A stretch of DNA of 64,000 nt, from contig CBDFLE010000005.1 of the NCBI GenBank assembly GCA_965248925.1, forward strand, positions 1,696,001 to 1,760,000, in the 5' to 3' direction. The position numbers and the translations under genes are program-made. Positions within the stretch are counted from its first letter, which is position 1, and each line of letters opens with the position of its first letter. This stretch comes from Candidatus Multivoradales bacterium (GTDB taxonomy: Bacteria; Acidobacteriota; Thermoanaerobaculia; Multivoradales; J023). Below the pieces are notes generated by a model. It was not told where the DNA came from and ran no database searches. It saw only the letters and a list, made by a program, of their open reading frames with translations. Below, piece after piece: positions 8,593 to 48,200 of this stretch.

Positions 8593-10202
8593 TCAGCCCG
8601 CGGCCGGCTCGGCCATGCTGAGCGAAGCCGGCGCCGCCTTGCCCAAGCCGACGAAGGGCTCGATCACCGGCGGCTGGCGGCTGATCTCGGGCTCCCAATA
8701 GTTCTCAGTCTCGTACAGGCAGCGGATCTGAGCGTAACTAAACATCGACATCATCACCATGGTGCCGGCTTCGGGTTTCTCGGCCAATGCCAAGGAGATG
8801 GTCCTCCACATCTGCCGCTCACGCGGACCGAGGCCGATCACCTTGCGAATCACGCCGCTGGCCTGGACCTCGATGGGACGCGGCTTGTGGGGGGTGTAGC
8901 CGGCCTTGAAGGGCCCCCGCTGGGGACCGAGACGCTCGATCATCGCTACCATTCGCTGGCCGAAGCTCTCTGGCTCGTAGAGCCGATTGCCTAACCACTT
9001 GAGGCCGCTGAACAGATCTTCCGGCCGCATCAGGACCGGCAGGATGTTGGTGTTCCACACTCCCTGGGTCTCGGAACTGCCTTCGGTGACCAACCGCCCG
9101 TCAGCTTTCATGCGGTCAAAGAGGGGCGTCGCCGCCGGCGCTACCAAGGCACCGAGGGTGAAGATCGGAACCGGGTTCCGCATCGCAAAGTCATACTGCA
9201 TCTGGAAGATGTTCGGCCCATCGTGGTCGAAACCAACGATCATTCCGCCGGTGACCGAAATCCCATGATCAAGGAAGATCTGCACTTGCTCGACCAGGTC
9301 TATACCCACGTTCTGCCGTTTGCCGGTCTCTTTCAGGCTCTCTTCGTTGGGGGTCTCGATGCCAATGAAAACTCGGGTGAGGCCGGCTTCGCCGCACAAT
9401 TCCATGATCTCTGAATCGCGGGCAGCGTCGATCGACACTTGGGTGTGGAAAGCCACCGGGCCGTCGGGGCGCTTGACGTTCCAGTCGCGCAGCGCCGCCA
9501 TCACATTCTTGGCCCGCTTGCGGTACACGGTAAAGTTGTCGTCGGCCAAGAAGACGGTGCGGAAACCGGTGGCATAGAGCACATCCAGCTCCGCAATGAT
9601 TGATCTACAGACTTGTGGCGCTGCTTGCGCCCCAAATACTGGATCACATCGCAGAATTCACACTCGAAGGGGCATCCCCGCGAGGTCTGCAAACAACCCG
9701 AAAGAATGCGGGAATTAGGATAGAGGTCGAAACGCGGCAGCGGTGAAGTCTCGAGATCGGGCTTCTCGGCGGTGTATTCGGCCTGCCAAGTGCCTTGCTC
9801 CAGGTCGGCAAAGAAGTCCTCGGCGATCGCCTCCAGCTCGCCAATCACCAGCACGTCACAATGACCCCGCACCGCCTCGGGCGACAGCGAGGCATGCGGA
9901 CCGCCGATCAGCACCGTCTTGCCGCGACGGCGGAACTCGTCCGCCACCTCGTTCATCCTCTGTCCTTGAATGACCTTGCCGGTGATGCCGATGAAATCGG
10001 CGTCGGTGTCGAAGTCGATCGGCTCGACATGCTCCTCACAAACCGTCACTTGCCAGTCGCTGGGGGCCAGGGCGGCGACGGTCACGGTGGCCAGGTCGGC
10101 GATCGCCTGCGCCGGGTCGTAGCCCCAGCGAGCGAAGGACTCGGCACCGAAATAACTAGGAGAAGCTGGGCAAGGGTTGATCAAGTACAGAGATTTTGAC
10201 AC
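8593..10202 (-). CDS. B12-binding radical SAM protein (DUF4070-type); 1-nt frameshift near 9600
   Basis: GGPHAS B12-binding domain and SRGCPFECEFC. GATCAATCATTGCG lacks one A, which would give ...DQIIAELD and join the ADDNF and GIET ORF. Confidence 0.88.
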
Positions 10203-11874: not shown

Positions 11875-13131
11875 CTAGAAAGTGTAGCTGGTCCACAGCC
11901 ACAGTTTGTCAGTGTCGGCTGAGAAATCATCAGCCTGATAGAACGCCGCTTTGGCGCCAAAGCTCTGCCCCCAGGAAGCGCCGAAGGTGAGTCGCAAGTC
12001 GAGTTCGGAGCCGTAGTCGAGACTACGGCTCTCGGCGGAGAAGTCATGGTAAATCGCTTTCCAGGCAATCTTCCGAATATCTCCCGAGATTGCCAGATAG
12101 AAATCTTCCAAACCCGCCGGCGGCGTGGCGAGGAACTTGTCCGCCCAACCGTTCCACTTGTGCAGCGTAGCAAGCGGCGTCGTAAAGCGCCCGCCAGCAC
12201 CGCCCTCCAGGCTCTCGAAACCGGCTTGCAACGTCCAGCCAGCGAGCCGGCCGCCAAGCACCGTGTGTTGGTAGCTGGCGTCGATCTCCCCAGGATGATC
12301 TCCGGTTTCCCGCTGCTCGGCGATCTCGACCTCGAAGAAACACTCGACCTCGCCAAACTTTCGCTGGCCGGTGAGTTCGAACCCATGGGTCGCGGTCGAC
12401 AGAGCTGCATCTGCCAAGCGGTCAAAATCTAGCGAGTAGACATAGACCCGCAGCTTGAACTGCGGCAGCTTGAAAGCGCCGTCGAGCAGATGGCTCGACA
12501 TCGGCTTGTGATCACCCAAAATGCGATGTACTTCGTCGAGATAGCGGTAGGTGAAGCTCACCCGATCATTGAAGGCGTGGGTCAACCCAAAGTGATCGAA
12601 GCTCTGATGGTTCTGCCGCCAACCCACCGGCCCAATGAAGCGCTGATCGGCTACCGCGATCTCCTGTCTCCCCACATCTACACGGGTAGATCCGCGGGCG
12701 AATCGCAAGTAGGCCTGGTTGATCTCCGTCGAGCGCGGATCGGCCACCACTGGGCGATCCGCGGCATTGTTAGCCGGGTTGCCTCCAAGGTCATTGAACA
12801 AACCACGGGAGCCCACCTCGGTCGAGTTCTCGGCCTCCAAGACCAAGCTGAAGCCACGGAACGGCTGGCTGTGATAGCCCAGCGTGGAGCGCAAGGTGGA
12901 AGACCGCCCATCTTTATCAAAGCGATCGTCCTCGACATTCTCAAACCGATAGCGCAGTTTGATCTTCACCTCACCGCTCTTCAAAGCCGCCGCCAGAGTG
13001 GCCGGCGGCTTGTCCTCCGCCACCGCCACGCTGGCTAGAAGGCCCAACCTGAATCCACTCAGCAACATCACGCTCAGCCACAGAGCTTTCGTTGTTAGCT
13101 CATAGGACGTGGGTCGGCGAATCAGTCTCAC
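11875..13131 (-). CDS. Outer-membrane beta-barrel, alginate-export family porin
   Basis: Signal peptide, LRYRFENV, GRQEI, GWRQNHQSFD, ATLHKWNGWADKF, C-terminal YTF. Start placed at GTG 13131 to avoid overlap with the upstream gene. Confidence 0.8.
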   Translation of the reverse strand: MRLIRRPTSYELTTKALWLSVMLLSGFRLGLLASVAVAEDKPPATLAAALKSGEVKIKLRYRFENVEDDRFDKDGRSSTLRSTLGYHSQPFRGFSLVLEAENSTEVGSRGLFNDLGGNPANNAADRPVVADPRSTEINQAYLRFARGSTRVDVGRQEIAVADQRFIGPVGWRQNHQSFDHFGLTHAFNDRVSFTYRYLDEVHRILGDHKPMSSHLLDGAFKLPQFKLRVYVYSLDFDRLADAALSTATHGFELTGQRKFGEVECFFEVEIAEQRETGDHPGEIDASYQHTVLGGRLAGWTLQAGFESLEGGAGGRFTTPLATLHKWNGWADKFLATPPAGLEDFYLAISGDIRKIAWKAIYHDFSAESRSLDYGSELDLRLTFGASWGQSFGAKAAFYQADDFSADTDKLWLWTSYTF

Positions 13132-13141
13132 GCTACTACTC

Positions 13142-14794
13142 TCACGGCCCTTCAGCCGTACCACCCTGGCCATAACGCTCCTCCATTTTCTTGCGGATAG
13201 CGCGCATTTGTAATTCGGCGCCTTCCTCGTACCACGCATGCTCGGGACGGGCAAGGATCCCGTCGATCACCGCGTCCACCGCCCGCGCCGCCGCCCCATC
13301 GCCACCAGTGCGACCGTGGCGGGTGATCTCGCGAGCTTCCGGAATCAACTCCATATAGAACCGCTCAGCGACCTCGAACATGCCGTGCCAGTGGGTGTAG
13401 TCGGGCGCCATCATCGAGGCGCCGTGGCGCGCCCGGCGACCTTCGTGGTGCCAGAGGTAGAACCAAGTCCACTCGATCGGCTCGTCGAATTGGGTCGAAG
13501 TGATCAAACCCTGCTGCCGCAATGCCACCATGATCGCCTGCCCCGGCTTAGCGAATTTCTCGTTGTAAAGAATCAGCAGGTCGTCGTACTGCTCGTAGAA
13601 AGCATTGGCAAAACTCGGCGTGTGGCAGTGTGAACACACCGCCTTCATTCGATTGCGCTTAGCCTCGGCGGTGTCGACAATCGCGTTGGCGCGCTCCTCC
13701 GGGTCGAGGGTCTTGACAATGTTGCCCTCGGCGTCAGTATCCATCACCAAGCTCACCGGTGGCCGGTTGGTCCAGGAGATGCGCTGCCCCGGATCGTGGG
13801 TGATCTTGCCGCCATTGCGGCTGTGGCCCGACAGGTGGCAAGTCGCGCAGGTCGGCGCCGCCGAATAGTCCTCGCCCAGCACCCAACTGTCGCCATCCAG
13901 GTTGAGTTCATCCTTGAGATCGCGATAGGCGACGCCGTGCTTGCTCTCCTCGTAGATCTCCTTCTGAGGATGATCCGGTCCGAGGTGGCACTTGCCGCAG
14001 TTCTCGGGCTGGCGCGCGCGCCGCGGGGAGAAGTCGTGACGGCTGTGGCAGGCCGAGCAAGAGCCCCGTGAGCCGTCCATGTTGAGCCGGCCGATACCGG
14101 TGTTGGGCCAGGTGCTGGAGGCGAATAGGGGTCGGCCGTCAGCATCGCGAAGAATCTGCGCCACGGCTTCCGTGGCGGTGGGCAGCCCATTCTCGTCAGG
14201 CAGAAAATCGGTCACGTCCAGGCGACCGCCATCGACCGACTGGAAGGCCACTTTCGAGCCATGGCACTGCTGGCAGCCGGAAGCCGCGCTGGCCAGCCCG
14301 TCTACCACCTGCACCGCCTTTCCAGGGGTCGGTGAATGGGGACTGAATGGCACTCGCGACCCCTCGACAGTCTCGGCCAGGAAATTGTCCAGCGAGTTGA
14401 GAATATCCCCCGCCTTGGCGTGGTGGCTGCCTTGAAACTCGGCCGCTACTTCACCATGACAGCGACCGCAATCGCGGGGAGTGACGATAGCGGCGATATG
14501 GTTGCCATAGTGGTCAAAACCATCGACATCGCCGGCCTGGGCTTCGTGGCATTCGAAGCACGCAACCCCGGAGATCGCATGCTGGCTACCCTGCCAATGT
14601 TCGAGAATGCCGGGCGTGGTCTCACCATGACAATCTACACAGGCCCGCGAACTGGCCGGCACCGCCACATGATGCTCGACCACTCCCAATTCCACTCGAC
14701 GGCGAGAGATTTCCATCCACTGCACCAACACCAACGACAGCAGGAAAAGCAGCGCCAAGGCGGCGATGATGAAGCGTTTCTGATTCAGAGTCAT
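13142..14794 (-). CDS. Membrane-anchored octaheme cytochrome c, hydroxylamine oxidoreductase (HAO) family, reductive epsilon-Hao-like type
   Basis: Eight CxxCH (CVDCH, CFECH, CGRCH, CQQCH, CSACH, CGKCH, CATCH, CSHCH); CHLGPDHPQKEIYEESKHG; HHEGRRARHGASMMAPDYTHWHG; N-terminal TM. Confidence 0.9.
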   Translation of the reverse strand: MTLNQKRFIIAALALLFLLSLVLVQWMEISRRRVELGVVEHHVAVPASSRACVDCHGETTPGILEHWQGSQHAISGVACFECHEAQAGDVDGFDHYGNHIAAIVTPRDCGRCHGEVAAEFQGSHHAKAGDILNSLDNFLAETVEGSRVPFSPHSPTPGKAVQVVDGLASAASGCQQCHGSKVAFQSVDGGRLDVTDFLPDENGLPTATEAVAQILRDADGRPLFASSTWPNTGIGRLNMDGSRGSCSACHSRHDFSPRRARQPENCGKCHLGPDHPQKEIYEESKHGVAYRDLKDELNLDGDSWVLGEDYSAAPTCATCHLSGHSRNGGKITHDPGQRISWTNRPPVSLVMDTDAEGNIVKTLDPEERANAIVDTAEAKRNRMKAVCSHCHTPSFANAFYEQYDDLLILYNEKFAKPGQAIMVALRQQGLITSTQFDEPIEWTWFYLWHHEGRRARHGASMMAPDYTHWHGMFEVAERFYMELIPEAREITRHGRTGGDGAAARAVDAVIDGILARPEHAWYEEGAELQMRAIRKKMEERYGQGGTAEGP

Positions 14795-14818
14795 CGGTCA
14801 GATCTCCAGAAATACGAA

Positions 14819-15868
14819 CTAGTGGGCAACCAAGCCTTCCCACACCGTCAATGCAAGGATGGTCAAAACAGCCACGATTCCGATCCAGACGCTGGCTTCG
14901 GCATATTTAGTACGGCGGCGGATAAAGGCATCAATAAACGGCCAAACAAACATGATGAAGACCACCAAGCCTGTCGACAGAAGGGCAAAAGTGCCCGAGA
15001 ACAATTTCAGCCAGCGAAAAGCGACATAGAAGAACCACTCGGGCTTAATCACCTCGGGAGTGATCAGCGGATTGGCTTTGGGACCCAGAGTGGCGGGCAA
15101 GACGGTAGCCAAGACCGACAGCACAATCATCAGTCCCAAGCCGAGAATCAGCTCGGTGTAGAGATGGTCGGGAAAGAAATTGAATGATTTCTTTTCGCCT
15201 TCATCTCCCTCAAAGTGCAGTTCGGTGATGCCTTGCAGGCGAATCAAGGCGATGTGGATGCCGATCAATAAAATCAGCAGCATCGGCAGCACCGCCGCGT
15301 GGAGGATGAAAAAACGTGGCAAAGTGCGGACGTTGTATTCCTCACCGCCGAGCAACAGCTGCTTGATAAAGCCTCCCACCCAGGGCACGCTGGCGGCCAT
15401 GTTGGCGGCCACCGTCGCCCCCCAATAGCTGAGTTGCTCGTAGACCAAGCTGTAACCGGTGAAGCCCAGCATCAACACGGCGATCAGCATCGACATGCCG
15501 ACCATCCAGTTGAGCTCTCGCGGCTGGCGGTAAGCGCCGGTGAAATAAACCCGCATCTGGTGCAGGATGACGGCGGCGATCATCAAGGTAGCCGCCCATT
15601 TGTGCAACCCGCGCAAGTACCAGCCAAAGGCCGCATCCTCGGTGATGTAACGCACCGCCTCGTAGGCCGTGCCCGGTGCCGGTTGGTAGTAGACCGCCAG
15701 CGAGATGCCGGTGACGATCAACACCACGAAGAGGTATGCCGGGGTGCCCCCGAGGGCAAACCACCAGCGCTTGAGATGATTGGGTACGGGCTCGTTGGTG
15801 AGCTCCCGCAGCTGCTCGCCGGAAATCGGCACGCGCTGGCGGAACCACTCACTGATCGCGCTGAGCAT
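14819..15868 (-). CDS. petB: Cytochrome b of a Rieske/cytb (bc-type) complex
   Basis: Heme His pairs LHKW...LHQMR and ILHAA...IHIA; GFTGYSL, SYWGATV and PEWF (PEWY-like Qo motif). ATG 15868 overlaps the Rieske stop. Confidence 0.92.
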   Translation of the reverse strand: MLSAISEWFRQRVPISGEQLRELTNEPVPNHLKRWWFALGGTPAYLFVVLIVTGISLAVYYQPAPGTAYEAVRYITEDAAFGWYLRGLHKWAATLMIAAVILHQMRVYFTGAYRQPRELNWMVGMSMLIAVLMLGFTGYSLVYEQLSYWGATVAANMAASVPWVGGFIKQLLLGGEEYNVRTLPRFFILHAAVLPMLLILLIGIHIALIRLQGITELHFEGDEGEKKSFNFFPDHLYTELILGLGLMIVLSVLATVLPATLGPKANPLITPEVIKPEWFFYVAFRWLKLFSGTFALLSTGLVVFIMFVWPFIDAFIRRRTKYAEASVWIGIVAVLTILALTVWEGLVAH

Positions 15869-16455
15869 CAGGACCGCCGCCCAGCCGCCGCTGAGCCACA
15901 AGGACCGCAACCCGCGGCCGCGGCCGGCACCGCCGCCAAGAGATCAGGAGGAGCCTGAATGAACAGCAGCCCCCGATCGACCCGCAGTGGAAACTGCAAC
16001 AACGCCTGCCCGGCATCGGCCGGCGGACCTGCGATCGCCTTGCCCTCGGCGGTGAAGACCCCGTTGTGACAAGGGCAGAAGAAGCGATCGTTCTGAGCCT
16101 GCCAATGCACTTGACAGCCAAGGTGGGGGCAGGTGCTCGACAAGGCGATGAAGTCTGCTGCGGCAGCCCTGGTCCCGCGGCGGGTGATGTGCACCGGGCT
16201 ACCGCTGGGTAAGTTGAAGGGCAGCGACTCCCCCGGTGCGATGCGCGCCGCCTCGCGGACGAACAACCAACTCTTGTCCGCCGGCTTCGCCGGGTACAAG
16301 AAACGGCCGATCACAGCCGCCAGCGTGCCATAGGCCATTAGCAAGCCACCCGCCATGGTCAGCGACGACAGCCAGGTCAAGAAAGTCCGTCGGTCTTGGC
16401 CGCCAGCCACCTGGGCTTCGGTCGCTCGAGTCTCGAGATCATGATCGTCGCTCAT
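15868..16455 (-). CDS. Rieske 2Fe-2S subunit (Tat-exported)
   Basis: DRRTFL Tat motif plus TM; CPHLGC and CPCHNG boxes; GPP. GGAG RBS before ATG 16455. Confidence 0.93.
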   Translation of the reverse strand: MSDDHDLETRATEAQVAGGQDRRTFLTWLSSLTMAGGLLMAYGTLAAVIGRFLYPAKPADKSWLFVREAARIAPGESLPFNLPSGSPVHITRRGTRAAAADFIALSSTCPHLGCQVHWQAQNDRFFCPCHNGVFTAEGKAIAGPPADAGQALLQFPLRVDRGLLFIQAPPDLLAAVPAAAAGCGPCGSAAAGRRS

Positions 16456-16557
16456 CCGCAACTCCTGCTGGGCACGGCTCACCGGGCAACCTCAAGGCAA
16501 CCATGAGCAGCACTAAAAGAATGCAGCGATCTTGCGGAACCCAGCCGCCCGCTACCA

Positions 16558-16641: not shown

Positions 16642-17283
16642 TCAGCTGGCGACGATGCCGTGGCGCAAGGCATGGCTCACCACCTGAGCGCGGTTGTGCA
16701 GATGCAGCTTGTCGAGGATGTTGCGAACGTGGAATTTGACCGTGTTCTCGCTGATCCCCAGATGCTTGGCTAGCTCGCGATTGGTGGTGACCCCGGCCAC
16801 CATCGCCTCCAGCACTTCCAACTCACGGGCGGTCAGGGCGTCCGGGTCCTTGTCTGCCACCGCTTGCCTAGGGTTGGCGAATTCGCTCAACAGCTTGCGC
16901 GCCAGCAGTGGAGTCAGCGCCGGTTCGCCCCGTAACACTCCTTCGAGCAAGGGGAAAAAGCGGTCGGCTTCGAGGTCTTTGAGCAAATAGCCTTCGGCAC
17001 CAGACTTGATAGCCTCGAACAGATCCTCGTCTTCGTGGGAAGCGGTCAGCACCACCACCTTGACCTGCGGCAACTCGGCACTGATCAAGCGGGTGGCGGC
17101 CAGCCCGTTCATCTCCGGCATGGCGAGGTCCATCAGCACGATATCGGGCTTGAGGCGCTGCGCCAACTCGAACGCTTCGCGGCCGTTACTAGCCTCGCCA
17201 ACGACTTGCAACCCGCGGGCACTGAGCAGGCTCTTCAAACCATCGCGAAACAGCACATGGTCATCTGCGATCAGCAATCTCAT
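16642..17283 (-). CDS. NarL/FixJ-family response regulator
   Basis: MRLLIADDH, VLMDLAMP, GYLLK and LuxR HTH LTARELEVL...TVKFHVRNILDKL. Confidence 0.95.
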   Translation of the reverse strand: MRLLIADDHVLFRDGLKSLLSARGLQVVGEASNGREAFELAQRLKPDIVLMDLAMPEMNGLAATRLISAELPQVKVVVLTASHEDEDLFEAIKSGAEGYLLKDLEADRFFPLLEGVLRGEPALTPLLARKLLSEFANPRQAVADKDPDALTARELEVLEAMVAGVTTNRELAKHLGISENTVKFHVRNILDKLHLHNRAQVVSHALRHGIVAS

Positions 17284-17291
17284 CCGTTCAC

Positions 17292-18641
17292 CTACTTCGT
17301 AGAGCGTCCGCGCAACAGCGGGTAGAAAACCTCCACCCGGGTGCCTTCGCCAGGACGCGATTTGAGCTTCAGCTTGGCGCCGATCGCTTCGGCGCGCTCG
17401 CGCATGGTCGCCAGGCCAAAGCGCGGCATTTGGCTGCGGCCCAGGGCGGCGGGATCGAACCCTACCCCGCGATCCGCCACCACGATCAAGATACCGTCGC
17501 CACGATGCTCGACCACCACCTCGGCCTGCTGTGCGCCGGAGTGTTTGCGCACATTGGCCAGCGCCTCCTGCAGGATCCGCAACAGCTGCAACTCGATATC
17601 GGTGGTCAGCCCCGGCACTTCCTCGGCCCGCAGTTCGACGGTGATGCCCGACTGATCCTGCCATGCCTCGATGTGGTGGCGAACGGTGTCGCCGAAGCCA
17701 GTCTCACCGTCGGTAATGGTGCGCAGGCCGAGAATACCCTCTCGAACGTCGGCATAGACCTCGCGCGCGGCCTTGGCCAGATCCCCTAAGTGCTGGCGCG
17801 CCTCCTCGCTACGCCCCGAGCGCAACAGCTCTTCCACCGCTTGGGCCTTGGTGTTGACGTAGGCCAGCACCTGCGCCTGGCCATCGTGCATCTCATGGGC
17901 CAGCCGCAGCCGCTCCTGCGCCACCGCCAGCGTGCCTACCTGAGCGTGTAGATGAGCATTGTCGACCGCGATCCCGGCCTGGCTGGCGAAGCGCGCCAAG
18001 GTGTCCTCCTCCTCGGCCGAGAACGGCTCTCCGTCGAGCTTTTGCGATAGGTAGAGATTGCCGCGAAACGGTCCGCTGCAAACCACCGGCACCGCCAGCA
18101 ACGACTGCATGGCCGGATGATCGGCGGGAAAGCCGCAAGAGCGCGCGTCGGTACCGATTTCGTCAACCCGCAAACACTGCCCTTGGCGCAGGGATACTCC
18201 CAGTAATCCCCTGCCGACCGGCAGATCGCCAATACGCTGCCGCTCCTGCTCGCCAACTCCGGTGGTGACGAAGCTGCGAATCGCGCCTTCATCGTCGTAG
18301 ACCGCCAGGGCGCCATAGTGAGTGCTGATCAGGTTGCAAGCTAGGTCGACGATCTTCTGCAATACCAGATCGAGGGATAGCTCCGAAGATATTTCCAAAC
18401 TGGCACCCCGCAGCGCCACCAGCTCACGGTTCTGGCGTTGAAGCTGGTGCTGCATCTCGTCGATCAGAGCAAAAACAAAGCCATAAAAGAACACCGCGCC
18501 AAGCAATACAACCCCATCCATCAGCAGCCGTCCCTGCCACGATCCAAGCACCGACGCGAAGGCGTAGCGGGCATACTCCAGCACACCGACAAAGACGATC
18601 GGCGCAAGCATGGCGAGCCATTTGAGACGGCGAAAACTCAC
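17292..18641 (-). CDS. GAF-domain sensor histidine kinase (HisKA_3, DosS/NarX-like)
   Basis: Two TM; GAF with GFPADHPAMQSLL; ERLRLAHEMHDG; QEALANVRKH, DRGVGF, FGLATMRER. Confidence 0.93.
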   Translation of the reverse strand: MSFRRLKWLAMLAPIVFVGVLEYARYAFASVLGSWQGRLLMDGVVLLGAVFFYGFVFALIDEMQHQLQRQNRELVALRGASLEISSELSLDLVLQKIVDLACNLISTHYGALAVYDDEGAIRSFVTTGVGEQERQRIGDLPVGRGLLGVSLRQGQCLRVDEIGTDARSCGFPADHPAMQSLLAVPVVCSGPFRGNLYLSQKLDGEPFSAEEEDTLARFASQAGIAVDNAHLHAQVGTLAVAQERLRLAHEMHDGQAQVLAYVNTKAQAVEELLRSGRSEEARQHLGDLAKAAREVYADVREGILGLRTITDGETGFGDTVRHHIEAWQDQSGITVELRAEEVPGLTTDIELQLLRILQEALANVRKHSGAQQAEVVVEHRGDGILIVVADRGVGFDPAALGRSQMPRFGLATMRERAEAIGAKLKLKSRPGEGTRVEVFYPLLRGRSTK

Positions 18642-28714: not shown

Positions 28715-30622
28715 TCAAGAGGCTAACAAATGCTCCAGGAAGGCAGCCGCCTGATCGTTGTCTGGCTCGAGGCTGAGTGCCTGGCGATAAGCTCGCGCGG
28801 CTTCCGCGGGCTCTTCGAGCCGTTCTAAGACCCGCCCCAGATAGACCCAGGCGACAGGGAAATTGGGGCGCAGCTCAACCGCCTGGCGGAGCGCCGCGGC
28901 CGCTTCCTCGAAACGCCCCAAGGCGGCCAGCACCAACCCTTGATTAAACAGCGGCTCCGGGCGGCCCCCAGCAGTGGCCAACGACAGCTTCAGATCCGCC
29001 AACGCACCTTCTTTATCCTCCAGTTGGACGCGGGCAATGGCCCGCCAATCCCGGGCCGACACCAGCTCTGGCCACACCTCCAGAGTCGCCGTCGCCACCG
29101 CGGCCGCCGCAGCGAAGTTCCCCACTCCGAGCAAGCCCTTGATCAGGTCGAGTTGCGGCTCTGGCGAATCCAGCTGCTGGCCTGGCAGGACCGCGGCCAA
29201 GTAGCGAGTCGCAGCAGCGCTGCCACCAGCGCGAATCACCGCACTCGCCCGGTAGATGCCGTCCAGCTCAGCATTGGAACCTGGCAGCGGCCGGATCAAC
29301 TCGGCTTCGGTCAGAATCGGCACCGTCTCCTCCAGCTCGGCGAGCAGTTCTTCGCCGCCGGGTCGACGACGGATGAGATGGTCTGTCATCACCACCTGCA
29401 CGACATCCTGAGTCCGCCGCCGAGACATGTGGCAAGCGGCACAATCGTCTGCCGCCACCGCCGGCAGGTCGACCCCGTCAGCCATCGACGACAGGGCGCA
29501 AGCCGCCGCCTGATGGCAGGAGAGACAGGCGTCGCGATAGTGCGCCTTGCGCGCGGCCGGCGCCACCTTGCGATGGGGATCGTGGCAGCGACTACAGCTC
29601 AGCTCGCCCGGCGGCGATTGCCTGAAGCAAGCACTCTGCTCTAACCGGTAAGGATGATGATTGATCTCGAAACGCTGTTCCCGGCTTCTATCTTGCTCAT
29701 CGACATCGAGCAACGCCAAGTAATCGGTCAGAGGTTCACCAGGGCGGAAGGAGTAGATCGAGCGACCAAAACGACGTACTCCAGCGAGCACCACGGAGGG
29801 TTGGAAATGGCAGCCATAGCAAATGTCAGCCGCCAGCCGCGGCGCCAACTTCGCCGGATTGACGATGGTCGAGCGCGCCGCTTCGCTAGCGCCCGAGACC
29901 GCTGCACGCAAGTGTTCAGCACCGGGGCCGTGGCAACGCTGGCAACCGATCCCCTGTGGCAGGTCCAGCGGAAAAGTCTGCGCCATGGCATAGGCATCGC
30001 TGCCGCTGGCAACCTCCGGATAGGCGTTGTGGCAGAACATGCACTCATGCCGCACCCGTCGTTCCAGGCCGGCATGATCAGCCGAGTCAAACCCCGGCGC
30101 CATCCCCCACTTCGCCCCCTGGCTGTACCAGGCCAGAGGCAGCTGGTAGAGCTCGCCGCCAGGGTCGTGGATCAGATAGAGGCGCGAGGTATGACCCGAA
30201 CCGAGAATCCAATCGACCTCGACCTCGTAGGGATGCAGCCGCTGGCCATCGCTGTCGACTCGGTAGCGCTCGAAAAACAGCCGCTCCCCCTGGCGTCGCA
30301 TGCGGTAATAGCGCTGTGAGGGCTGGTGGTAGAACGGCTCGGCGGTGAAATCCTCGATCATCCGCTCAGCGCTGGGCCGAAAAAAACTCTGCGCCATGCC
30401 GACCTCTTGAAAGGCGCTGTAGATCTCCGAATGACAGCTGGCACAGGCGCGATCGGGTACATAGCCGGGGGCCGCGCCGACGCTGACCGGGATACCCCTT
30501 TGCGCCAGCACATCCCCCGAGGGGGCCCGGCAGCCAGCGCTCAGCAGCGCGACCGCCACTAGCAATGCAGCCGCCGCCTGCCTTGCAAGGCGACTCGTCG
30601 AGGGCTGGTCGATGAGGGACAA
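28715..30622 (-). CDS. Multiheme cytochrome c (7 CxxCH) with C-terminal TPR repeats, lipoprotein
   Basis: CASCH, CMFCH, CQRCH, CYGCH, CSRCH, CLSCH, CAACH; LSAGC lipobox; TPR-like C-terminus. Confidence 0.88.
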   Translation of the reverse strand: MSLIDQPSTSRLARQAAAALLVAVALLSAGCRAPSGDVLAQRGIPVSVGAAPGYVPDRACASCHSEIYSAFQEVGMAQSFFRPSAERMIEDFTAEPFYHQPSQRYYRMRRQGERLFFERYRVDSDGQRLHPYEVEVDWILGSGHTSRLYLIHDPGGELYQLPLAWYSQGAKWGMAPGFDSADHAGLERRVRHECMFCHNAYPEVASGSDAYAMAQTFPLDLPQGIGCQRCHGPGAEHLRAAVSGASEAARSTIVNPAKLAPRLAADICYGCHFQPSVVLAGVRRFGRSIYSFRPGEPLTDYLALLDVDEQDRSREQRFEINHHPYRLEQSACFRQSPPGELSCSRCHDPHRKVAPAARKAHYRDACLSCHQAAACALSSMADGVDLPAVAADDCAACHMSRRRTQDVVQVVMTDHLIRRRPGGEELLAELEETVPILTEAELIRPLPGSNAELDGIYRASAVIRAGGSAAATRYLAAVLPGQQLDSPEPQLDLIKGLLGVGNFAAAAAVATATLEVWPELVSARDWRAIARVQLEDKEGALADLKLSLATAGGRPEPLFNQGLVLAALGRFEEAAAALRQAVELRPNFPVAWVYLGRVLERLEEPAEAARAYRQALSLEPDNDQAAAFLEHLLAS

Positions 30623-38925: not shown

Positions 38926-39280
38926 CAGCACCTTTCTGGTCGGAGAGAGCTTGGCAGAGCCCGTGGGAGCAACGGCCATGCAGAGGGCTGCGTGGAGTCG
39001 CTCCAACCTCGCCGGCTACTGCCAAGACCTCGAGGGCCTGTGACCCAGGCCACCGTGCCGAGAGCCTCGCCTCTGGGGGAATCTCCCGTCTGACACGAAG
39101 TTCAGAGAATGTCCTACAACCTTGCCACTAGCCGTCGCTCCATCGTCGCCTTTAAGATACAGGGGTAGGTCGCGCAGTCTCGGTCGACTGCCTGTCTACT
39201 TGTCTGCAACTTCTGCACTGATCCCCGCCAGGTAGGGCCTACCTTAACCCTCCTGTTTTCTTTTTCCAAGAGGTTTGGTG

Positions 39281-42200
39281 ATGTCTTCTAGTACATTGGT
39301 TTTCTTGCCGAGTGGTGGTTTCGCGCCCCGGTGCGCATCTCCTCGGGTCGGGCGTGGCGCACTTTTCCTGGCCATGGCTTTTTTGTTCCTGGTTCCCTTC
39401 GAGATCCAGGCGCAGCCCGCCCTCGAGGCGTCGATCAACGCCGGCTACAACTACGTGGTCGATTCGAACGTGCTGTCTCCCTCCACCTACGCTCCCTCGG
39501 TAGCCACGGTCATGGGAAGACTCTGCAATACGGGGACGGTTCCGCTGACGGATGTGTCGGGCTACATCGGCGACATGACCGCGGGGACGCCCGGCCTCTA
39601 CCCGACCCGGGACAGCTCCGCAGCTGCCTTCATCACCGAGCATCCTCATCTCGCCACCACCGGCCTCTACTCGCTCACCCATGTCGGAGGGAGCGCGGGG
39701 TTGGCGGATGCGACCCGCTATGTCGGCAGCCTGGATGTCGGTGAGTGTCGGACGCAGTATTGGCATATGACCTATCCGCGGCGGACCAACCCGGACAACA
39801 CGGGACCGGATCCGGTGTGGGGTCTCACCCGGGATCCCGACGACGACCTGTGGCTGACCTTTGACATCTGGGTCACCTCCACCGAAGGAGCATCGGCTTC
39901 CGCTACACACCGCGCCACCCTGCGCAACGAGATCTCCGCTAACGCCAACAAGATCGAGCCCAACGGCGGTATCTGGTTCAACGATCCCTCGATGGTCAAG
40001 CCCGGTGAGTTGTTGATCACCAACGGTTTCAACTATGACCTCGGGGTCATCAACAAGGGTTTCGACAACGATGGCGATCTCGACTTCGACTTCAACGCCT
40101 GGCTACAGCCGATCGGTGATCCCTCGTACGATCCCAGCTGCTACCGCCTGGTCAAGACCGAAGGGCAACTAGTCATCTCTCGGTCCGGGGGCAATCCGGA
40201 CACCATCATCGATTTCGTCGACCAACTCTACTTCACGGATCTTCCCGATGACAATAACGGCGGCCTCGGAGTCGTCAAATACACGTTCCTGGCCTTGAAC
40301 GGCCCCTGCGCGACCACCATCACTCCCTACCAGGAGGTGGCATCCGGTGCGGATAACGAGAAGTTCGCCGGCGATTTCGGAACAGAGGCACCCTCCTTGG
40401 AGAGCCTTCCGGCGGACGTGACCCTGGACAAGTCCGTGGACAAGAGTTCGGCGAACCTCGGCGAGACCCTGACCTATTCCATGGACATCGAGAACACCGG
40501 TGCGAGCGCCGTGGGCCAGCCCGACTTCGGAACCCCTCTGGTGGTTCGGGACTCGATTCCCTCCGGCACGAGTTATGTCGCCGCCTCGGCCAGCTTTGTC
40601 CTTGGCTTCAGTCCGAACGATGGCGTCCGAACGCTCTTCTCGACCGACGGCGGCACGATCTGGTCCTCCACCGAACCGGCGAATCCGGCTCTCGTCACAG
40701 ATCTCCAATGGTGGCTGAGAGATCCTCTACCTGCCGCTACCACCGGGACCTTTTCGTTTCAGGTGACGATCGACGCGGGATTCGGCGGCCTCTCGATTCC
40801 CAATACGGCCGGTCTCTCCTTCGCCAACGCCGGTCCGTTCGCCGAGGACTCGGCCTTGACCCTGATTTTGGGAACGAACACCATCGGTGACTTCATCTGG
40901 CGGGACCTCGATCAGGACGGCGTCCAGGACGGAGGTGCCGAGACCGCAATCTCCGACGTCACGGTCTCTCTCTATTTCGATGCCGACGGTGACGGCTTGA
41001 TCGGTCCCGGCGACCTGCTCATCGGTACTACCACCACGGCCGTCGACGGCTCCTACTCCTTCCCCGATCTTGTCGACGGTGACTTTGTCGTACAGGTCGA
41101 CAAGGCGGATCCGGACCTGGGGGTCGGCTGGGCGCTGACCACTGACGAGACGATCGCCGTAACCCTGGCCGGAGGCGACTTCCTCACCGCCGACTTCGGA
41201 TTCTCGCCGATCCTGGCTCTCACCAAGACCCTTACCTCCGCCTCGCCGGCCACCGAGGGCGAGCTCGTCACTTATGACATCCAGCTGACCAATCTGCTCG
41301 AAGAAGGCGGGGCTGGCGGGGAGTGTGTCTATACCGAATGGGCGAATGACGAAAATGGAAGCGGATTCAACAATCCCACGAATGCATTAGGTGCTCCGGA
41401 TGGGCAGTACGCGGACACGACGTCAACCAACATCCCCTTTCTGGGAGGAGCCTTTAACTTCGTTCCAGCGGATTTGAGTGAGGAGATAGTCAAGGTCGAG
41501 GTATTGGCGTGGGCCTATGTCGATTTCTCCTCCCCGCCCCTGGGCGACCTAAGTATCACCCTCCAACAGTGGTATAATCAGATGCCCGGTACCGTGTTCG
41601 AAATATTCACTTCCTTCACCACTCCCAGCTCCAACGACTACATTGGCAGCGCCAATGCTGGCCTCCTGGTCTTGGACGCCACCTCCGCTAGAACCTGGTC
41701 TCAGTCGGATCTCAACACACCCTCCGTGACCTTGGGGCACTCCAGTATCATTAGGTTTTCTTACTCAGGAGGGGGAGGCGAAACGGCCACTTTCTTTGTC
41801 GATGCGCTCGGAGTGAGGGTAACGACTCAATGTAGCGGTCCGCTCGGAGGTGTCATTCAACCCTTGCCACTGGCCGATACCTACAACGCGGATCTGCTGG
41901 AATTCGTCTCCGCGGTGCCGCCGGTGAGCAGTGTGACCACGGGGGGGGCGACGCCCTACACCAACACCGGTGCCCTCTCGTGGGCTGACGTAGGCCCTCT
42001 CCCGGGGCTGACCTCGAGTTCGGTAACGGTGACTTTTCGGGCGCTTGAGCCTCCGGACACCGATGCCGACGGCGAGAATGACCCGGCCTTCCTGCCCAAC
42101 GATGCCCTAGCGACTGGCGCCTTCCTCGTGGACGGTACGCCGGTCAACGAAGCGAGCGACGACGCTGATACCACCGTCAACCCGAGAGGTACCTTCTCGG

Positions 42201-45200
42201 GCACGGTGTGGAACGACAGCGGGTTCGGTGGTGGAACCTCCGGCGACGGCATACGAGACGGCGCGGAGCAGGGCATCCCGAGCGTTACGGTGACGCTGTT
42301 CACCGACCCGAACGGCGATGGCGACCCGAGCGACGGCGTGGCGATCAATAGCCAGGTGACCGACGCCAACGGGGACTACCTCTTCCTCGGCCTCACCGAC
42401 GGCAGCTACGTGGCGGTGGTCGACACGGCGACCTTGCCGGGATCCACCTTCACCCAGACGGCCGACCCGGATGCTTCACTCGATAACCAGGGCGGCGGTG
42501 GCCTCGACAACGACGACAGCAACCCGGCCAACGATGACATCGCGGACATCGATTTCGGCTACACCATTCCCAACACCGTCTTCGGCAACTTGTGGGAAGA
42601 CAACGACGCCAACGGCTCCCAGGGGACGGGTGAGAATCCTTTCGCGGGAGTGACGGTCAACCTTCTCGACTGCGGCGCCGACACCGTTTGCGGCAACGGC
42701 GACGACGGGGCGACGGTATCTGCGACCACCGACGCCAACGGCGACTACAGCTTCGAGGACGTGGTGGACGGTAACTATCGCGTGGCGGTGGACACGACCA
42801 CCCTGCCGGCTGGGGTCACATGGAGCCAGACGGTGGACCCGGATGCCACTCTCGACGACCGGACGACGGCGACGCTCTCGATTACCGGCGGCAATGTCTA
42901 CGGTCCTTTCGACTTCGCCTACACCGGTACCGGCAGCTCCGACATCGGCGATACGCTGTTTACCGACTGGGATGGCGACGGTGTGCCGGACATCGGCGAA
43001 GAGGGAATTGCCAGCGTCACGGTCTTCCTTTACGAAGATACCAACGGCGACGGCATGATCGATCCGTTGGACGATGCCCTGGTGGCCACCACGGTCACCA
43101 GTGCCAGTGGCGGCTACCTCTTCCCGGACCTGCCGGCTGGGGACTGGATCGTGGTGGTGGACGGCACCGACCCGGACCTTCCCGATTCATACGTACAAAG
43201 CCTCGATCCGGACGAGGCCGGGATTTGCGCGACCTGCGACGGCTCCGCCTCGGTGACTACCGACGGCACCGCCGATCAGCTCGACGTCGACTTTGCCTAT
43301 CAGCCCAGCGGCTTCGGCCAGATCGGTGACACAGTCTTTCTCGACGCCGACCGCGATGGTATCCAAGATGCGGCGGAGGCCGGGATCGCCTCGATCACGG
43401 TGACTCTTTACGAGGACTCCAACAACGACGGCCTGATCGGCGCCGGCGACGCGGTCGTCGCCACGGTCGAAACCAATTCGGACGGCGGCTATCTGTTCCG
43501 CGACCTGCCGGCAGGCAACTACCTGGTGGACGTGGACGCGGCGGACGCCGACTTGCCGACGGACGGTAACGGCGATCAGTACATCCTTTCGACCGCCAAC
43601 GATCCACAGCAGGTGACACTGGCGACTGCCAACGACGTCTTCCTCGACGCCGATTTCGGCTTCACGCCGGGCGGTGTGATCGGCGATACGATCTGGCGGG
43701 ACGACAACGGAGATGGCCTCGAGAGCGCCGAGGAGCTTCCTATCGCCAACGTGACCGTCAGCCTCTACGACGACGTCAATGGGGACGGCGATTACGACCC
43801 GGGCACCGACACGCTGGTTGCAACGGATGTGACGGACGTCAACGGTCAATATCAGTTCAGCGGACTGCCGGCGGGCGCCTATGTGGTGGTGGTGGACTCC
43901 ACCGATCCGGACCTGCCTTCGACCACGGTGACCTACGACGCCGACGGCAGCTTGGACTTCGAAACCGGCGTTGACCTGAGCCCTGGGCAGATTGTCAATT
44001 TCGTAGACTTCGGGATCCAACCGCCGGGCGTGATCGGTGACGTGGTCTTTATCGACAACGACGGAGACGGAATCTTCGACCCGACCGCCGGGGACGAAGG
44101 CATCTCCGGTACGACGGTCGAACTCTACAACGACGTCAACGGGAACGGTGTCTACGATCCCGGTACGGATACCTTGGTGAGCTCCGTGGTCACGGATACG
44201 AACGGTCTCTACGCCTTCGGCGATCTATCGGATGGGGACTATGTCGTAGTGGTCAATACCGCGACTTTGCCGGCAAACCTCAACCCAACCTTCGACCCGG
44301 ACGAAGGCAACGGCTGCGTGACCTGCGACAGTGTCGGTGCCACCACCCTCACGGGAGGGAATATCGACCTGACCCTCGACTTCGGTTACCAGCACCTTCC
44401 GCTGCCGGAGCTTCGTATCGACAAGGACACGACCACACCCATCGTCGTTGCCGGGGGCCAGGCCACCTATACGATCAAGATTCAGAACGCTGGCACCGCG
44501 ACGGCGGAGGATGTCGGCGCAGCGGACACCCTACCGGCCGGCTTCACCTACGCCACGACCGATAGCATCGTGGAAGACGGTGCCGTGCGCACGGTGACTA
44601 CTTCACCCTCGGTGGGAGCCAATGCTCCAGCTTGGGGTGTTTGGGATATCGCGGCCAAAGGTTCGCTTCTGATCACCTTCACCGTAGACGTCGGCGTGGC
44701 GGTCGCGGACGGTACCTACGACAACACCGCCACCGCGAGCTATGACTCCGATGGCGACAACATCCCCGACACCACCGTCGACGACGATGGCACCCAGCCG
44801 CAGGATGCGGACACGCCCCCGCTGTTCGATCCGGAAGACGACGAAGACGTGACCGTCCAGCCGGCCCCAGTGCTGGCGGTGACCAAAGTGTCCAGCGCCG
44901 GCGCGGCAGCAGACCCGGGCGAGACCATCACCTACGCCATGACCGTCACCAACAACGGCTCCGCCGCGGCGAGCAACGTAACGCTCAGCGATGCGCTGCC
45001 AGAGGGTACGACCTACGTCGCGTCGAGCTCCATGGTGACGACGCCGGTCAACCAACCGCCGGAAACCTTCGCCGATGACTTCGAGAGCGGAGGTTATGCG
45101 GGGTCGACTGGGACGCAGAACTGGGCGACCAGCCCGTGGTCCGAGATCGGCGACGACGGCAGTGCCACCGGTGGCGACGTGCAGGTGGTCGCGGACTTGG

Positions 45201-48200
45201 GAGACAACAGTCTCGAGATGCGCCGAGCCGGCAATGGCGCCCTCCGGCAGGCCGATCTGTCGGCCTTTGATTTCGCGACCCTGACATTCGACTTCCGGCG
45301 TTCGGGTTTCGACAATGCGTCGGACCTAGTGACCGTGGAAGTCTCGAACAACGGTGGTGGCAGTTGGACACCCTTGGCCACCTACGACGGCGCCACGATC
45401 GCCACGGACGCCACTTACCAGCCGGCGAGCTTCGACATCTCGAATCAAATTGCTAGCAACACACAAATCCGATTCGTCACCGCCGGTCTCGGAACCCAGG
45501 ACCGCTTCTACGTGGACGACGTTCAGATCGAGGTCATCGCTCGTCCGACGGTACTGAGCGCCGGCGCGGCGCCGGCCGGCCTGGTCGTATCGGCGGATGG
45601 CTACGACCTCCTCCCGGGGGAGACGATGACGGTGACCTTCCAAGCGGTGGTCGACAGTCCCGCGCCGCTGGGCCAGACCTCGGTCGACAATACGGTCTTC
45701 GCCGCCGCGGACGAAATCGCTGACCCTGTCAGCGCTGAGGTCAGCGACCCGCTCAATAGTCTCAACCAGGCGACGATCGGCGACCTGGTGTGGAACGACG
45801 TCAACGGCGACGGCGATCCGACGGGCGAGGACGGCCTCGCGGGAGTGCGAGTGCTGCTGTACACCGCGGGACTCGACATGATGTTCGGTACGCCCGACGA
45901 TGTGCTTATCGCCACCGAGGTGACCGACACCACTGGTGCATACGACTTCATCGGACTGTCGGTGGGGACCTATCAGGTGGTCATCGATCAGGACTCACTT
46001 CCGCCGTCGTACTTCCTGACCACGGGCAACGAGCCGTTGACGGTCACCCTCACCAGCAACTCCGAAGACTTCAACGATGCCGACTTCGGCTACCAACATC
46101 AGCCGGTCACGCTACCGGTGACCCTATCGTCATTCCGCTTGGAGGTACTCGGTGGCACCCTCCGTTTCACCTGGACGACGGAGACCGAGACGGCAAATGT
46201 CGGCTTCTTTCTCTACGGTGAGACCGAGGCTGGCTGGGTGCCACTTCACGATGAGTTGATCCCGTCTCTAGTCGTCGACTCCGTGGTGCAGCAGCAGTAC
46301 ACTCTCGATGTGCCGGCGGCCGGCACGCAGCGCTTTCTGTTGATCGACATCGACACCCGGGGAAGGTCGACTCATCACGGTCCATTCACGCTGGGCGAAG
46401 CCATCGCCGCGGCTTCGCCCCGGCCGGCCGAGCGGATCCAGTGGTCGGCAATTCGCATGCGCCACCACGCCCAGGAAAGAGAGCGGCAGGGAGGCTGGCG
46501 CCAGAGAGACCTACCGGAGGTCGAGATCTCCGTGCCGGCAAACGGCCTCTACCGAATCACCTGGGAACAGCTCGACGCGGCGGGCCTCGACTTGTCCGGA
46601 GTGCCGCTACATCACCTGGCGGTCACCGTGGCAGGCGAGCCGGTGGCGGCATACACCAGCGGCAAGGGCACCTGGAAGGCCGGAGCGGCGCTCGAGTTGA
46701 TTGGCGAGAGGCTCGAGACCCTCTACGCCGATACCAACCTATACCGCCTGTCCGTCGATCCGGCCACCGCCGAGCGCGTATCGGTCGACCCGCGGCCCGC
46801 GCCGCGAGGGGGTACCGCGGTGACGACCTATCGTGAGACCGCCCGAGTCGGCGAAGAGAACCTCTACAGCTTCGGCGCCCCGAACGGCGATCCTTGGATC
46901 GATCGCTGGCTGTTGGCCTTCGGCGCCCCGGCGAGCGCCGAAATACCGGTGAGCGTCGACCATGTGGTCGACGGCGGCCAGAACGCCGTGCTGCGGGTCG
47001 AGCTCTGGGGGGTGACCGCATGGCCCGAGCGACCCGATCACCATGTGGTTCTTTCCTTCAATGGAAGGCAATTGGCCAGTGTTTGGTTCGACGGTCTGGT
47101 GAACTACCCCATCGAGATTCCACTACCGGAGGGCCTGCTTCGCGAGGGAGAGAACCTCGTGCGGATCGAGCTTCCGAACGACACCGGTTTGCCCTTCGAT
47201 CTGGTCGCGCTCGATCGGGTCGAGGTGACCTTCGACCGACAGACGGTCGCAACGCAGGGAACCCTCTCCTTCGAAGCGAGCGGCTCGGCGGTCGAGGTGA
47301 GTGGCTTGCCGAGTGAGAAGGTCACTGTCTACCGAGAGTCGGACGGCGAGCTCGAGAGACTGGCCAAGGTCACCGTCACCGCCGGGACCGAGGGCTTCAC
47401 GGCTCGTTTCCGCGGCTCCGACGGCCGCCTAGCTCGCTATATCGTGACCGCCGCCGGTAGCGAGCAGGAGGGCGGCCTCGCGGCGGCCCGGCCACTCGTA
47501 GACATCCACGCTGGCTCCGCCGAGTACCTCATCCTCAGCCATCCGGACTTCCTCGAAGCCTTGCCACCTCTGGTGGCGGCAAGGCAGCGGCAAGGCCTCA
47601 CCGTGCGGGTGGTCGATGTCGAAGACGTCTACGCTCACTACTCGGGCGGGGTGCTCGACGCAGAGGCGATTCGATCGTTCATCGCCCATGCGGCGACCAA
47701 GCTCGGCACACGCTATGTGCTGCTGGTCGGGGGCGACAGCTACGATTACAAGAACTACTTGGGAATTGGCAGCATCAGCTTCCTGCCGTCGCTCTACAGC
47801 CGGACCGGATCGGTGGTCTACTTCGCACCGTCCGACCCCCTCTACGGCGACCTCGACTACGACCGGGTGCCTGACCTTGCGATCGGCCGGTTCCCGGTAC
47901 GCACGGTGGAAGAGCTCGAAGAGGTCATCGCCAAAACGCTCACCTTCGAGCAAATCTACTATCGGCGAACGACCTTGGTGGCGACTGACGCGGACAATTC
48001 AGCAGAAGCGATCTCCTTCCGTGAGGCGGGCGACCAGCTCACCTCTGAGTTGAGTGCAGGATGGGAAGTTCGCCGAGCGGATATCGACCATCTGGGAGTT
48101 GACGGCGCGCGGTCGGCGTTGATCCAAGCCATCGAGCAAGGCACAGCGCTGACCCAATACTTCGGCCACTCCGGGCCGACTCTGTGGTCCTTCCACCGGC

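Follow-up and report, generated by a model that had tools for sequence, protein, structure and literature searches.

A Rieske/cytochrome b unit with an octaheme cytochrome of the hydroxylamine oxidoreductase family in place of cytochrome c1: a candidate quinol:nitrite oxidoreductase in Acidobacteriota and other phyla

A 64,000-nt stretch of the genome of Candidatus Multivoradales bacterium (hereafter the window, to whose whole length all coordinates refer unless another locus is named) carries on its minus strand a four-gene unit (11875-16482) that encodes, in this order, a Rieske protein, a cytochrome b, an octaheme cytochrome c of the hydroxylamine oxidoreductase (HAO) family, and an outer-membrane barrel. 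We hold with moderate confidence that the unit specifies a quinol:nitrite, or broader quinol:N-oxide, oxidoreductase in which the octaheme protein joins a Rieske/cytochrome b pair as a third subunit, anchored in the membrane and responsible for catalysis. The four genes are:

15868-16482, minus strand: Rieske [2Fe-2S] subunit with a twin-arginine signal/anchor (Pfam Rieske 1.8e-9, motifs)
14819-15868, minus strand: cytochrome b of the fused b6 + subunit IV type (Pfam; the open reading frame extends to TTG 15910)
13142-14794, minus strand: HAO-family octaheme cytochrome c with an N-terminal membrane helix (eight CxxCH, PDB profile matches)
11875-13131 (reading frame to 13254), minus strand: 18-strand outer-membrane beta-barrel, alginate-export / OprD-Occ-like (Pfam, AF2 [AlphaFold2], Foldseek)

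There is almost no space between the four open reading frames (ORFs). The Rieske stop codon overlaps the ATG of cytochrome b (15868) by 1 nt in the string TGATG, 24 nt separate cytochrome b from the octaheme gene, and the barrel has two candidate starts, ATG 13173, 32 nt inside the octaheme gene, and GTG 13131, 10 nt past the octaheme stop and 7 nt behind GAGAG. No gene for a cytochrome of the c1 or f type lies in the unit, nor is there room for one between the ORFs; ORFs, Pfam matches, and motifs all bear out the original prediction, made from the sequence alone, of four tightly linked genes lacking c1. Their spacing suggests that the four genes may be co-transcribed; a promoter/terminator scan gave counts equal to those of shuffled sequence.

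The first two proteins have the features of bc1/b6f-type complexes. In the Rieske protein, RRTF at residue 31 is a twin-arginine motif, and the two Rieske boxes are present (CPHLGC at 118 and CPCH at 136); the protein matches the b6f/bc1 Rieske models of NCBIfam, in every case below the cut-off. The cytochrome b matches Pfam Cytochrome_B (3.7e-47) and Cytochrom_B_C (4.2e-8), and its four b-haem His (H103, H117, H204, and H219, with b6-type spacing) and PEWY-type Qo motif (P290-E291-W292-F293) are invariant in 13 aligned cytochromes b, i.e., that of the window and 12 relatives. Relatives begin at window Met15, which makes ATG 15868 the likely true start. The unit differs from bc1/b6f in that the c1/f subunit is missing and the acceptor would be an eight-haem enzyme with an N-terminal helix anchor, whereas cytochromes c1 and f are anchored C-terminally. 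The window's cytochrome b is the sole true cytochrome b of the genome, and with the Rieske protein it forms the genome's only Rieske/cytochrome b pair. As a separate observation on this subunit, the position of residue 52 (in WWFxLGG) is Ala in the window and Cys (WWFC) in four of the 13 aligned proteins (L011, L044, L059, and L062), which may correspond to the Cys that binds haem ci in b6f-type complexes.

The octaheme protein (550 residues) has eight CxxCH motifs (residues 52, 79, 109, 174, 246, 266, 316, and 387), no CxxCK, and a match to Pfam Multi-haem_cyto (PF13447, 6.3e-25). A profile search of PDB gave 4qo5, a 'hypothetical multiheme protein' that we take to be IhOCC of Ignicoccus hospitalis, as the top solved relative (3e-53), followed by the Kuenenia enzyme without a cross-link (6h5l, 7e-30), Nitrosomonas HAO (NeHAO; 1fgj / 4fas, 2.2e-19), a hydroxylamine oxidoreductase that is presumably Kuenenia HOX (4n4j, 3.4e-17), and hydrazine dehydrogenase (HDH; 6hif, 1.4e-16). 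Motifs, Pfam, and solved structures thus agree with the predicted assignment to the HAO family. HMMER alignment placed D274/H275 opposite D267/H268 of the NeHAO chain and R344 opposite Y334, and the distal Asp-His pair that characterizes the family at catalytic haem 4 is present. HDH likewise has a conserved Asp/His pair, and its Tyr462 is bonded to haem 4 (PMC6469936). D274, H275, R344, M461, and W469 are invariant in 15 family members from several phyla.

The residue at the cross-link position distinguishes oxidative from reductive members of the family, and the original prediction, from a manual alignment, was that Met stands for the His ligand and Trp for the cross-linking Tyr. Since HMMER single-sequence and profile alignments to NeHAO end before the cross-link region, HDH, HOX-like, and HAOr-like genes from anammox genomes, located with the NCBIfam HDH model, were aligned by MAFFT (L-INS-i) together with the window protein, three others of its family, and 45 representatives of full length, for a total of 58 rows; the representatives are relatives at E 1e-52 or better, a set that holds neither canonical HAOs nor epsilon-Hao. 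Results reproduced the manual alignment. W469 fell in the column of HDH Tyr462 and of Tyr451 of the HOX-like paralogue, and no reference row has a gap between the conserved (I/V)E that precedes the last helices and this column. The column holds Trp in HAOr-like rows and Phe in IhOCC-like rows, and Tyr occurs only in the HDH/HOX rows and one IhOCC-like row. At the M461 column, where the canonical enzymes have His, 12 of the 58 rows show His and 45 Met. The window octaheme therefore lacks the cross-linking Tyr of P460 enzymes, as does epsilon-Hao. It differs from epsilon-Hao, the reductive HAO of Campylobacterota, in its partners: epsilon-Hao is linked to quinol by a NapC/NrfH-type tetraheme, no NapC-type gene lies within the four-gene unit, and the partners here are Rieske and cytochrome b.

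A quick maximum-likelihood tree of the same rows, with SH-aLRT (approximate likelihood-ratio) support only, separated the HAOr, HOX, and HDH rows, as one clade with support 100, from the remaining 51. The window protein grouped with its family (supports 96 and 99) inside a 28-row set that mostly shares Trp469, Met461, the Asp-His pair, and Arg344.

The first 35 residues of the octaheme form a conserved hydrophobic helix (residues 3-35 at pLDDT [per-residue model confidence] 82-91 in AF2). Prediction of a complex of cytochrome b with the octaheme scored 0.73, and the best control 0.01. Of 157 solved complexes, 116 score this high, as do 2 of 215 mismatched pairs, although the use of custom alignments makes this calibration rough and the value is a model score rather than a measurement. 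Runs agreed in at least 87% of contacts, with partner pLDDT of at least 84. The predicted interface pairs octaheme residues 1-36 with cytochrome b residues 108-124, 271-295, and 338-360, which supports the octaheme being an integral subunit held by its N-terminal helix. The contact expected from the original prediction was thus recovered by modelling.

To follow the unit beyond the window genome, we used a word-indexed protein search, in which 7993 of 8000 scored candidates were relatives and the best 120 had 69-82% identity, and a scan of one genome per species, in which at least 571 genomes held an octaheme relative. Identity within the octaheme family is 60-80% across phyla over the whole 550 residues. 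The nearest named homologues are from metagenome-assembled genomes (MAGs) of Acidobacteriota/Thermoanaerobaculia and one MAG labelled Deltaproteobacteria. The best 80 loci of the scan served as the synteny sample. By record title, 40 of these are from Planctomycetota, 13 from Acidobacteriota, 9 from Gemmatimonadota, and 3 from Binatia, with one or two loci each labelled Deltaproteobacteria, Anaerolineales, UBP7, Eiseniibacteriota, Krumholzibacteriota, and Polyangiaceae, and two doubtful labels besides. Among the 75 loci whose upstream flank reaches 1200 nt or more, 73 have cytochrome b immediately before the octaheme in the same orientation, so that the octaheme occupies the place of c1 or f there. 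Where the flank reaches 1900 nt or more (73 loci), Rieske plus cytochrome b precede the octaheme in 70, all except L018, L025, and L080. The gene order Rieske-cytochrome b-octaheme is therefore conserved; of the four-gene synteny first proposed, the three inner genes held and the barrel, present at 6 of the 80 loci, did not hold across phyla. One of the sampled genomes (L039/G001), an 8.3-Mb MAG labelled 'Candidatus Kuenenia sp.', has a single HAO-family match, to the window's family, while true anammox genomes gave 16 matching stretches from about ten HAO-family genes; its label or binning is doubtful.

The genes beside the octaheme point to nitrogen oxides. Seventy loci have 1500 nt or more of sequence after the octaheme, and in 29 of them the next gene, on the same strand, is napA-like; its product (780-790 residues, twin-arginine signal, molybdopterin fold) is 69-78% identical among copies. 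With two shorter flanks there are 31 such loci, including 11 from Planctomycetota, 8 from Gemmatimonadota, and 6 from Acidobacteriota. The gene after napA (L002:10018-10644 and 25 further loci) encodes about 200 residues with four CxxCH and a repeated 'RLYDGAPPV(I/L)PH'; by its sequence it looks like two NapB units in tandem, as against the usual dihaem NapB.

The window genome (8.0 Mb, 6 contigs, 96.9% complete) has one octaheme. It holds no NapA orthologue, the best match having 35% identity over partial length, and NrfA, NirK, and NirS gave no match over cut-offs, leaving the octaheme as the only one found among the respiratory nitrite reductases searched. In the same genome (G000, contig C6, 2129-2144 kb; L145), narGHJI, a NarK-like transporter of the major facilitator superfamily, and alternative complex III (ACIII) stand in one row on one strand. 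With narGHJI and the transporter, the cell could reduce nitrate cytoplasmically and would then export the nitrite. The ACIII set of this locus looks complete, with a multihaem protein, an ActB-like molybdopterin/FeS protein, an NrfD-type ActC, ActD, and a cytochrome c. The genome has three ActD/ACIII loci, which would make a separate quinol:cytochrome c route available, so that the Rieske/cytochrome b/octaheme complex can be a dedicated one. The link to nitrogen oxides in the original prediction is thus upheld by the recurring napA and by this genome's inventory.

Within a sample of 101 genomes of the window's order, taking at least 69% identity to denote an orthologue, the octaheme occurs in 29 genomes, NrfA in 19, and both in 4; the octaheme is missing from all 13 genomes whose NrfA scores high. 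Four other octaheme carriers gave NrfA over the cut-off once, as a partial 29-bit match inside an 821-residue frame. Separately, five octaheme orthologues of this sample (G348, G319, G306, G354, and G382) contain a single in-frame stop (TAG, TGA, TGA, TAA, and TAG, respectively) and may be pseudogenes or assembly errors. A second octaheme type occurs in L131 and L140 (G379 and G337) and also in G361, G371, and G376. It is 48% identical over about 500 residues (tblastn) and 56-59% identical over the C-terminal half, and in two genomes it lies directly downstream of a barrel homologue.

The barrel matches Pfam Alginate_exp (PF13372, 1.4e-6, 27.8 bits against a cut-off of 25.2), which its homologues carry as well, and its C-terminus (...SYTF) ends in F. 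The AF2 model (pLDDT 85.8, pTM [predicted fold score] 0.81) has 18 strands, and Foldseek matched it to OccD3, OccK9, and OpdK (E ~1.5e-15, TM 0.65-0.77) and, lower, to AlgE (~1e-11). With 18 strands, a signal peptide, and a C-terminal aromatic residue, the protein has the marks of the alginate-export/OprD-like channels; it differs from OprD/Occ and AlgE in sequence (10-17% identity) and in its partners, which are nap, Rieske, cytochrome b, and octaheme genes rather than those of alginate or carbon uptake. Many Arg and His are invariant among 40 homologues. In the window's order the barrel is single-copy and occurs in 44 of the 101 genomes, including 22 of the 29 with the octaheme orthologue. 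Among 29 barrel loci from other genomes of the order, surveyed over 1.5-kb flanks only, 16 have genes of the module or nap genes beside the barrel, as follows:

Octaheme directly upstream, as in the window: 2 loci
napA-napB directly upstream: 8 loci
Rieske-cytochrome b directly downstream: 3 loci
The 48%-identical octaheme paralogue: 2 loci
NapA-like gene: 1 locus

The modelled fold fits a channel for a small solute, probably an anion, and does not fit a porin-cytochrome conduit. Of the two roles first suggested for the porin, admission of an anion thus gains from the OprD/Occ/AlgE-like fold and the frequent position after napAB, and a part in electron transfer loses.

The architecture is already proposed from genomes, and the porin link and the wide phylum spread are what is added here. 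In Caldithrix abyssi (Cabys_2564-2556), which lacks NrfA, a nap-Rieske/cytochrome b-epsilonHao cluster was proposed in 2017 to carry electrons from quinol to nitrite, with possible generation of proton-motive force by Rieske/cytochrome b (PMC5317091). As far as the gene descriptions go, that cluster resembles ours in the order Rieske, cytochrome b, Tyr-less HAO-type octaheme, in the lack of c1, and in the adjacent nap genes. It differs in that nap is upstream and of the napMADGH type, with the tetraheme NapM as mediator, whereas the window's relatives have napA and the tandem-NapB-like tetraheme downstream; neither an outer-membrane barrel nor an N-terminal anchor is described there. The statement in the original prediction that the route is not established in this lineage is therefore fair only in part, the same gene order beside nap having been put forward for C. 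abyssi. In the literature found, in which subscription journals and supplements lay outside the search, C. abyssi is the only case beyond the anammox bacteria in which a link to Rieske/cytochrome b is described. Reductive 'hao' genes are noted without such a link in work on Phycisphaerae, on hypersaline mats, and on cold seeps.

In anammox bacteria, the R/b-3 complex joins Rieske/cytochrome b to the HAO-like Kuste4574, a suggested nitrite reducer (PMC12485887), and like the window unit it carries a HAO-family octaheme without the cross-link. The R/b-3-matching cluster of the anammox genome G137 has six genes and a split cytochrome b, as against four genes and a fused cytochrome b in the window. 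Its identity to the window proteins is 30% for Rieske, 34% for cytochrome b, and 24% for the octaheme. This octaheme falls in the HAOr clade, and its membrane helix is C-terminal, in contrast to the N-terminal one of the window protein. Given this low identity, the different HAO clade, and the C-terminal anchor, we regard R/b-3 as analogous rather than orthologous; the anammox precedent cited in the original prediction stands in the former sense only. The closest homologue of the window octaheme in G137 is another protein (L111:9329-10993, 554 residues, ~50% identity), which keeps ...PDYTHWHG. It has a cleavable-looking signal in place of the membrane helix and is encoded between a DUF488 gene and a transposase, with no Rieske/cytochrome b.

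Characterized relatives bear on the product. HAOs without the cross-link reduce nitrite, nitric oxide (NO), and hydroxylamine, and that of Kuenenia, HAOr (Kustc0458/7; 6h5l), yields NO (PMC8042395). HAOr shares with the window protein the HAO fold and the lack of the Tyr cross-link, and it works only reductively (PMC8042395); it differs in being soluble, in its dihaem cytochrome partner, in its His at the Met461 column, and in its clade, as well as in its known product, NO. The IhOCC-like rows resemble the window protein in the Met of the 461 column and in an aromatic residue other than Tyr at the cross-link column; they form a separate clade and have DI/DV, without the His of the Asp-His pair. 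The product of epsilon-Hao and of the Ignicoccus enzyme is ammonium. We know of no Rieske/cytochrome b partner for IhOCC.

Taken together, these observations suggest the following mechanism. The three inner genes would form one membrane complex, in which the Rieske/cytochrome b pair oxidizes (mena)quinol at the PEWF Qo site; since both b-haem His pairs are present, a Q-cycle is possible. The Rieske cluster would pass its high-potential electron to the octaheme in place of c1/f, and the N-terminal transmembrane helix of the octaheme would fix it to cytochrome b. The catalytic site would be the fourth haem (CQQCH) with the Asp-His pair and the nearby Arg, and because the Tyr cross-link of oxidative HAOs is missing, the octaheme would act as a periplasmic reductase of nitrite, and probably of hydroxylamine and NO as well. 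In the window genome, nitrite would come from cytoplasmic NarGHI through the NarK-like antiporter. In relatives with NapA and the tetraheme NapB-like protein, the same chain of haems probably supplies nitrate reduction too and so takes the part of NapC. The barrel would be a substrate-specific outer-membrane channel that lets a small anion in or out.

As for the product, we lean only tentatively towards ammonium over NO. Of the quinol:nitrite ammonification in the original prediction, N-oxide reduction is the likely part and ammonium the more tentative one; HAOr, also without the cross-link, makes NO. A broader version appears possible but rather doubtful: a widespread, energy-conserving hub for nitrate and nitrite respiration that couples a Q-cycle to the six-electron reduction of nitrite to ammonium at its own haem 4, supplies NapAB through the same haems, replaces both NapC and NrfAH, and in some lineages is served by a dedicated outer-membrane anion channel, with many environmental genes named 'hao' then standing for ammonification rather than nitrification.

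Several points weigh against the reading of the unit as a quinol:nitrite oxidoreductase. The placement of W469 comes from sequence alignment, and the invariant Y466 lies opposite an Asp of HDH only three columns from the cross-link column. The AF2 model of the octaheme monomer, made from a 15-row alignment, was poor (pLDDT 52.7), and the complex score is roughly calibrated, as noted above. No nap gene lies directly downstream in 41 of the 70 loci, and the barrel accompanies the module at only 6 of 80 cross-phylum loci, in shifting positions. An NrfA-like gene, with a split and lower-scoring match, accompanies the orthologue in 4 of 29 carriers, and because kin are not independent the complementary pattern of NrfA and octaheme is weak, a hint only. 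Being the genome's only Rieske/cytochrome b pair, the complex may serve a more general respiratory role. The nearest characterized enzymes differ in product, NO for HAOr and ammonium for epsilon-Hao and the Ignicoccus enzyme, and we found no biochemical, genetic, or expression result for any family member.

The alternative that best survives, which we nevertheless consider unlikely, is that the octaheme is a haem wire, a substitute for c1 that feeds separate periplasmic reductases (NapAB in relatives, others in the window genome) and has no catalysis of its own. The napA and tetraheme napB-like genes directly next to it in 29 of 70 loci would suit such a wire, as would the gene orders of those nap operons, in which no NapC-type gene was seen, and the lack of a second Rieske/cytochrome b pair in the genome; the Caldithrix paper also weighs Rieske/cytochrome b as the Nap donor (PMC5317091). 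However, the Asp-His pair and the neighboring Arg344 are invariant across phyla, the identity of 60-80% over 550 residues exceeds the constraint that a wire needs, the window genome retains the octaheme without a NapA orthologue, and the majority of the loci, as counted above, have no nap gene downstream.

Less probable again is that the substrate is another compound, a sulfur oxyanion (sulfite or tetrathionate), selenite/tellurite, or a metal, with the nap linkage secondary. The best NCBIfam match of the cytochrome b is indeed ExtP, of a 'selenite/tellurite reduction operon', and octaheme enzymes are catalytically promiscuous, as discussed for OTR and ONR (PMC8042395). Yet the ExtP match is below the cut-off (214 bits against 290) and covers the b6-like half only, the nearest solved, characterized relatives act on nitrogen compounds, and among neighbors nap genes recur, whereas no sulfur or selenium gene recurred in neighbor clustering.

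Very improbable, in our view, is an extracellular electron-transfer conduit, with the multihaem cytochrome and the barrel as a porin-cytochrome pair that reduces or oxidizes metals. The cytochrome gene does abut the barrel gene, and a second multihaem protein is encoded nearby (28715-30622), but the 18-strand barrel folds like the monomeric small-substrate channels OprD/Occ and AlgE, the octaheme's inner-membrane helix is predicted on cytochrome b, the barrel of relatives follows napAB or precedes the Rieske gene rather than adjoining the cytochrome, and 74 of the 80 cross-phylum loci have no barrel. Just as remote is an oxidative HAO that returns electrons from hydroxylamine or hydrazine to the quinone pool, as the names 'hydroxylamine oxidoreductase/dehydrogenase' given to many homologues by NCBI and JGI and the invariant Y466 three residues from the cross-link column might imply, against which stand the Trp of that column in 15 of 15 family members, the position of the family outside the HDH/HOX clade, nap genes as the usual neighbors, and a window in which no context of ammonia monooxygenase or hydrazine synthase was seen.

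Upstream of the quinol:nitrite oxidoreductase candidate, on the same strand, lie two regulatory genes:

17292-18641, minus strand: sensor histidine kinase, GAF + HisKA_3 + HATPase_c (Pfam)
16642-17283, minus strand: NarL/LuxR-type response regulator, Response_reg + GerE (Pfam; start likely at Met128 of a long ORF)

The kinase is a possible regulator of the operon. Kinase homologues with 47-55% identity adjoin the module at three of the 80 loci (L003, L005, and L020) and also in L117, and response-regulator homologues with 67-72% identity lie beside it in L005 and L020. The gene downstream of the unit is convergent and has no Pfam or NCBIfam match and no counterpart in related loci. Farther away in the window, the minus strand at 8593-10202 holds a B12-binding radical SAM gene apparently split across two overlapping ORFs (9501-10202, with the B12-binding domain and CxxxCxxC, and 8593-9582, with Radical_SAM and DUF4070), which may reflect a frameshift or an assembly error. 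The multihaem protein at 28715-30622 (minus strand, 635 residues) has Paired_CXXCH and Cytochrome_C7 motifs and C-terminal TPR repeats, and a plus-strand ORF of 3095 residues (39275-48562) encodes eight SdrD_B repeats, DUF11, DUF7507, and a C-terminal, gingipain-type Peptidase_C25.

If the proposed function is correct, a large set of bacteria living in soils, sediments, and waters, among them Acidobacteriota, Gemmatimonadota, and Planctomycetota other than anammox bacteria, would possess a nitrite-reducing route that marker surveys do not count, since these use nrfA, nirK, and nirS and may file the octaheme gene as 'hao', i.e., as nitrification. Coupling through Rieske/cytochrome b would also make the reduction of nitrite, and of nitrate by Nap-type enzymes, electrogenic, a property with which systems linked to NrfH and NapC are not generally credited. 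The interest of the family lies in this likely energy coupling and in its breadth. Its carriers include apparently complete, single-contig genomes, so that tests in culture may be feasible. The product would decide its ecology, ammonium meaning that nitrogen is retained and NO that it is lost.

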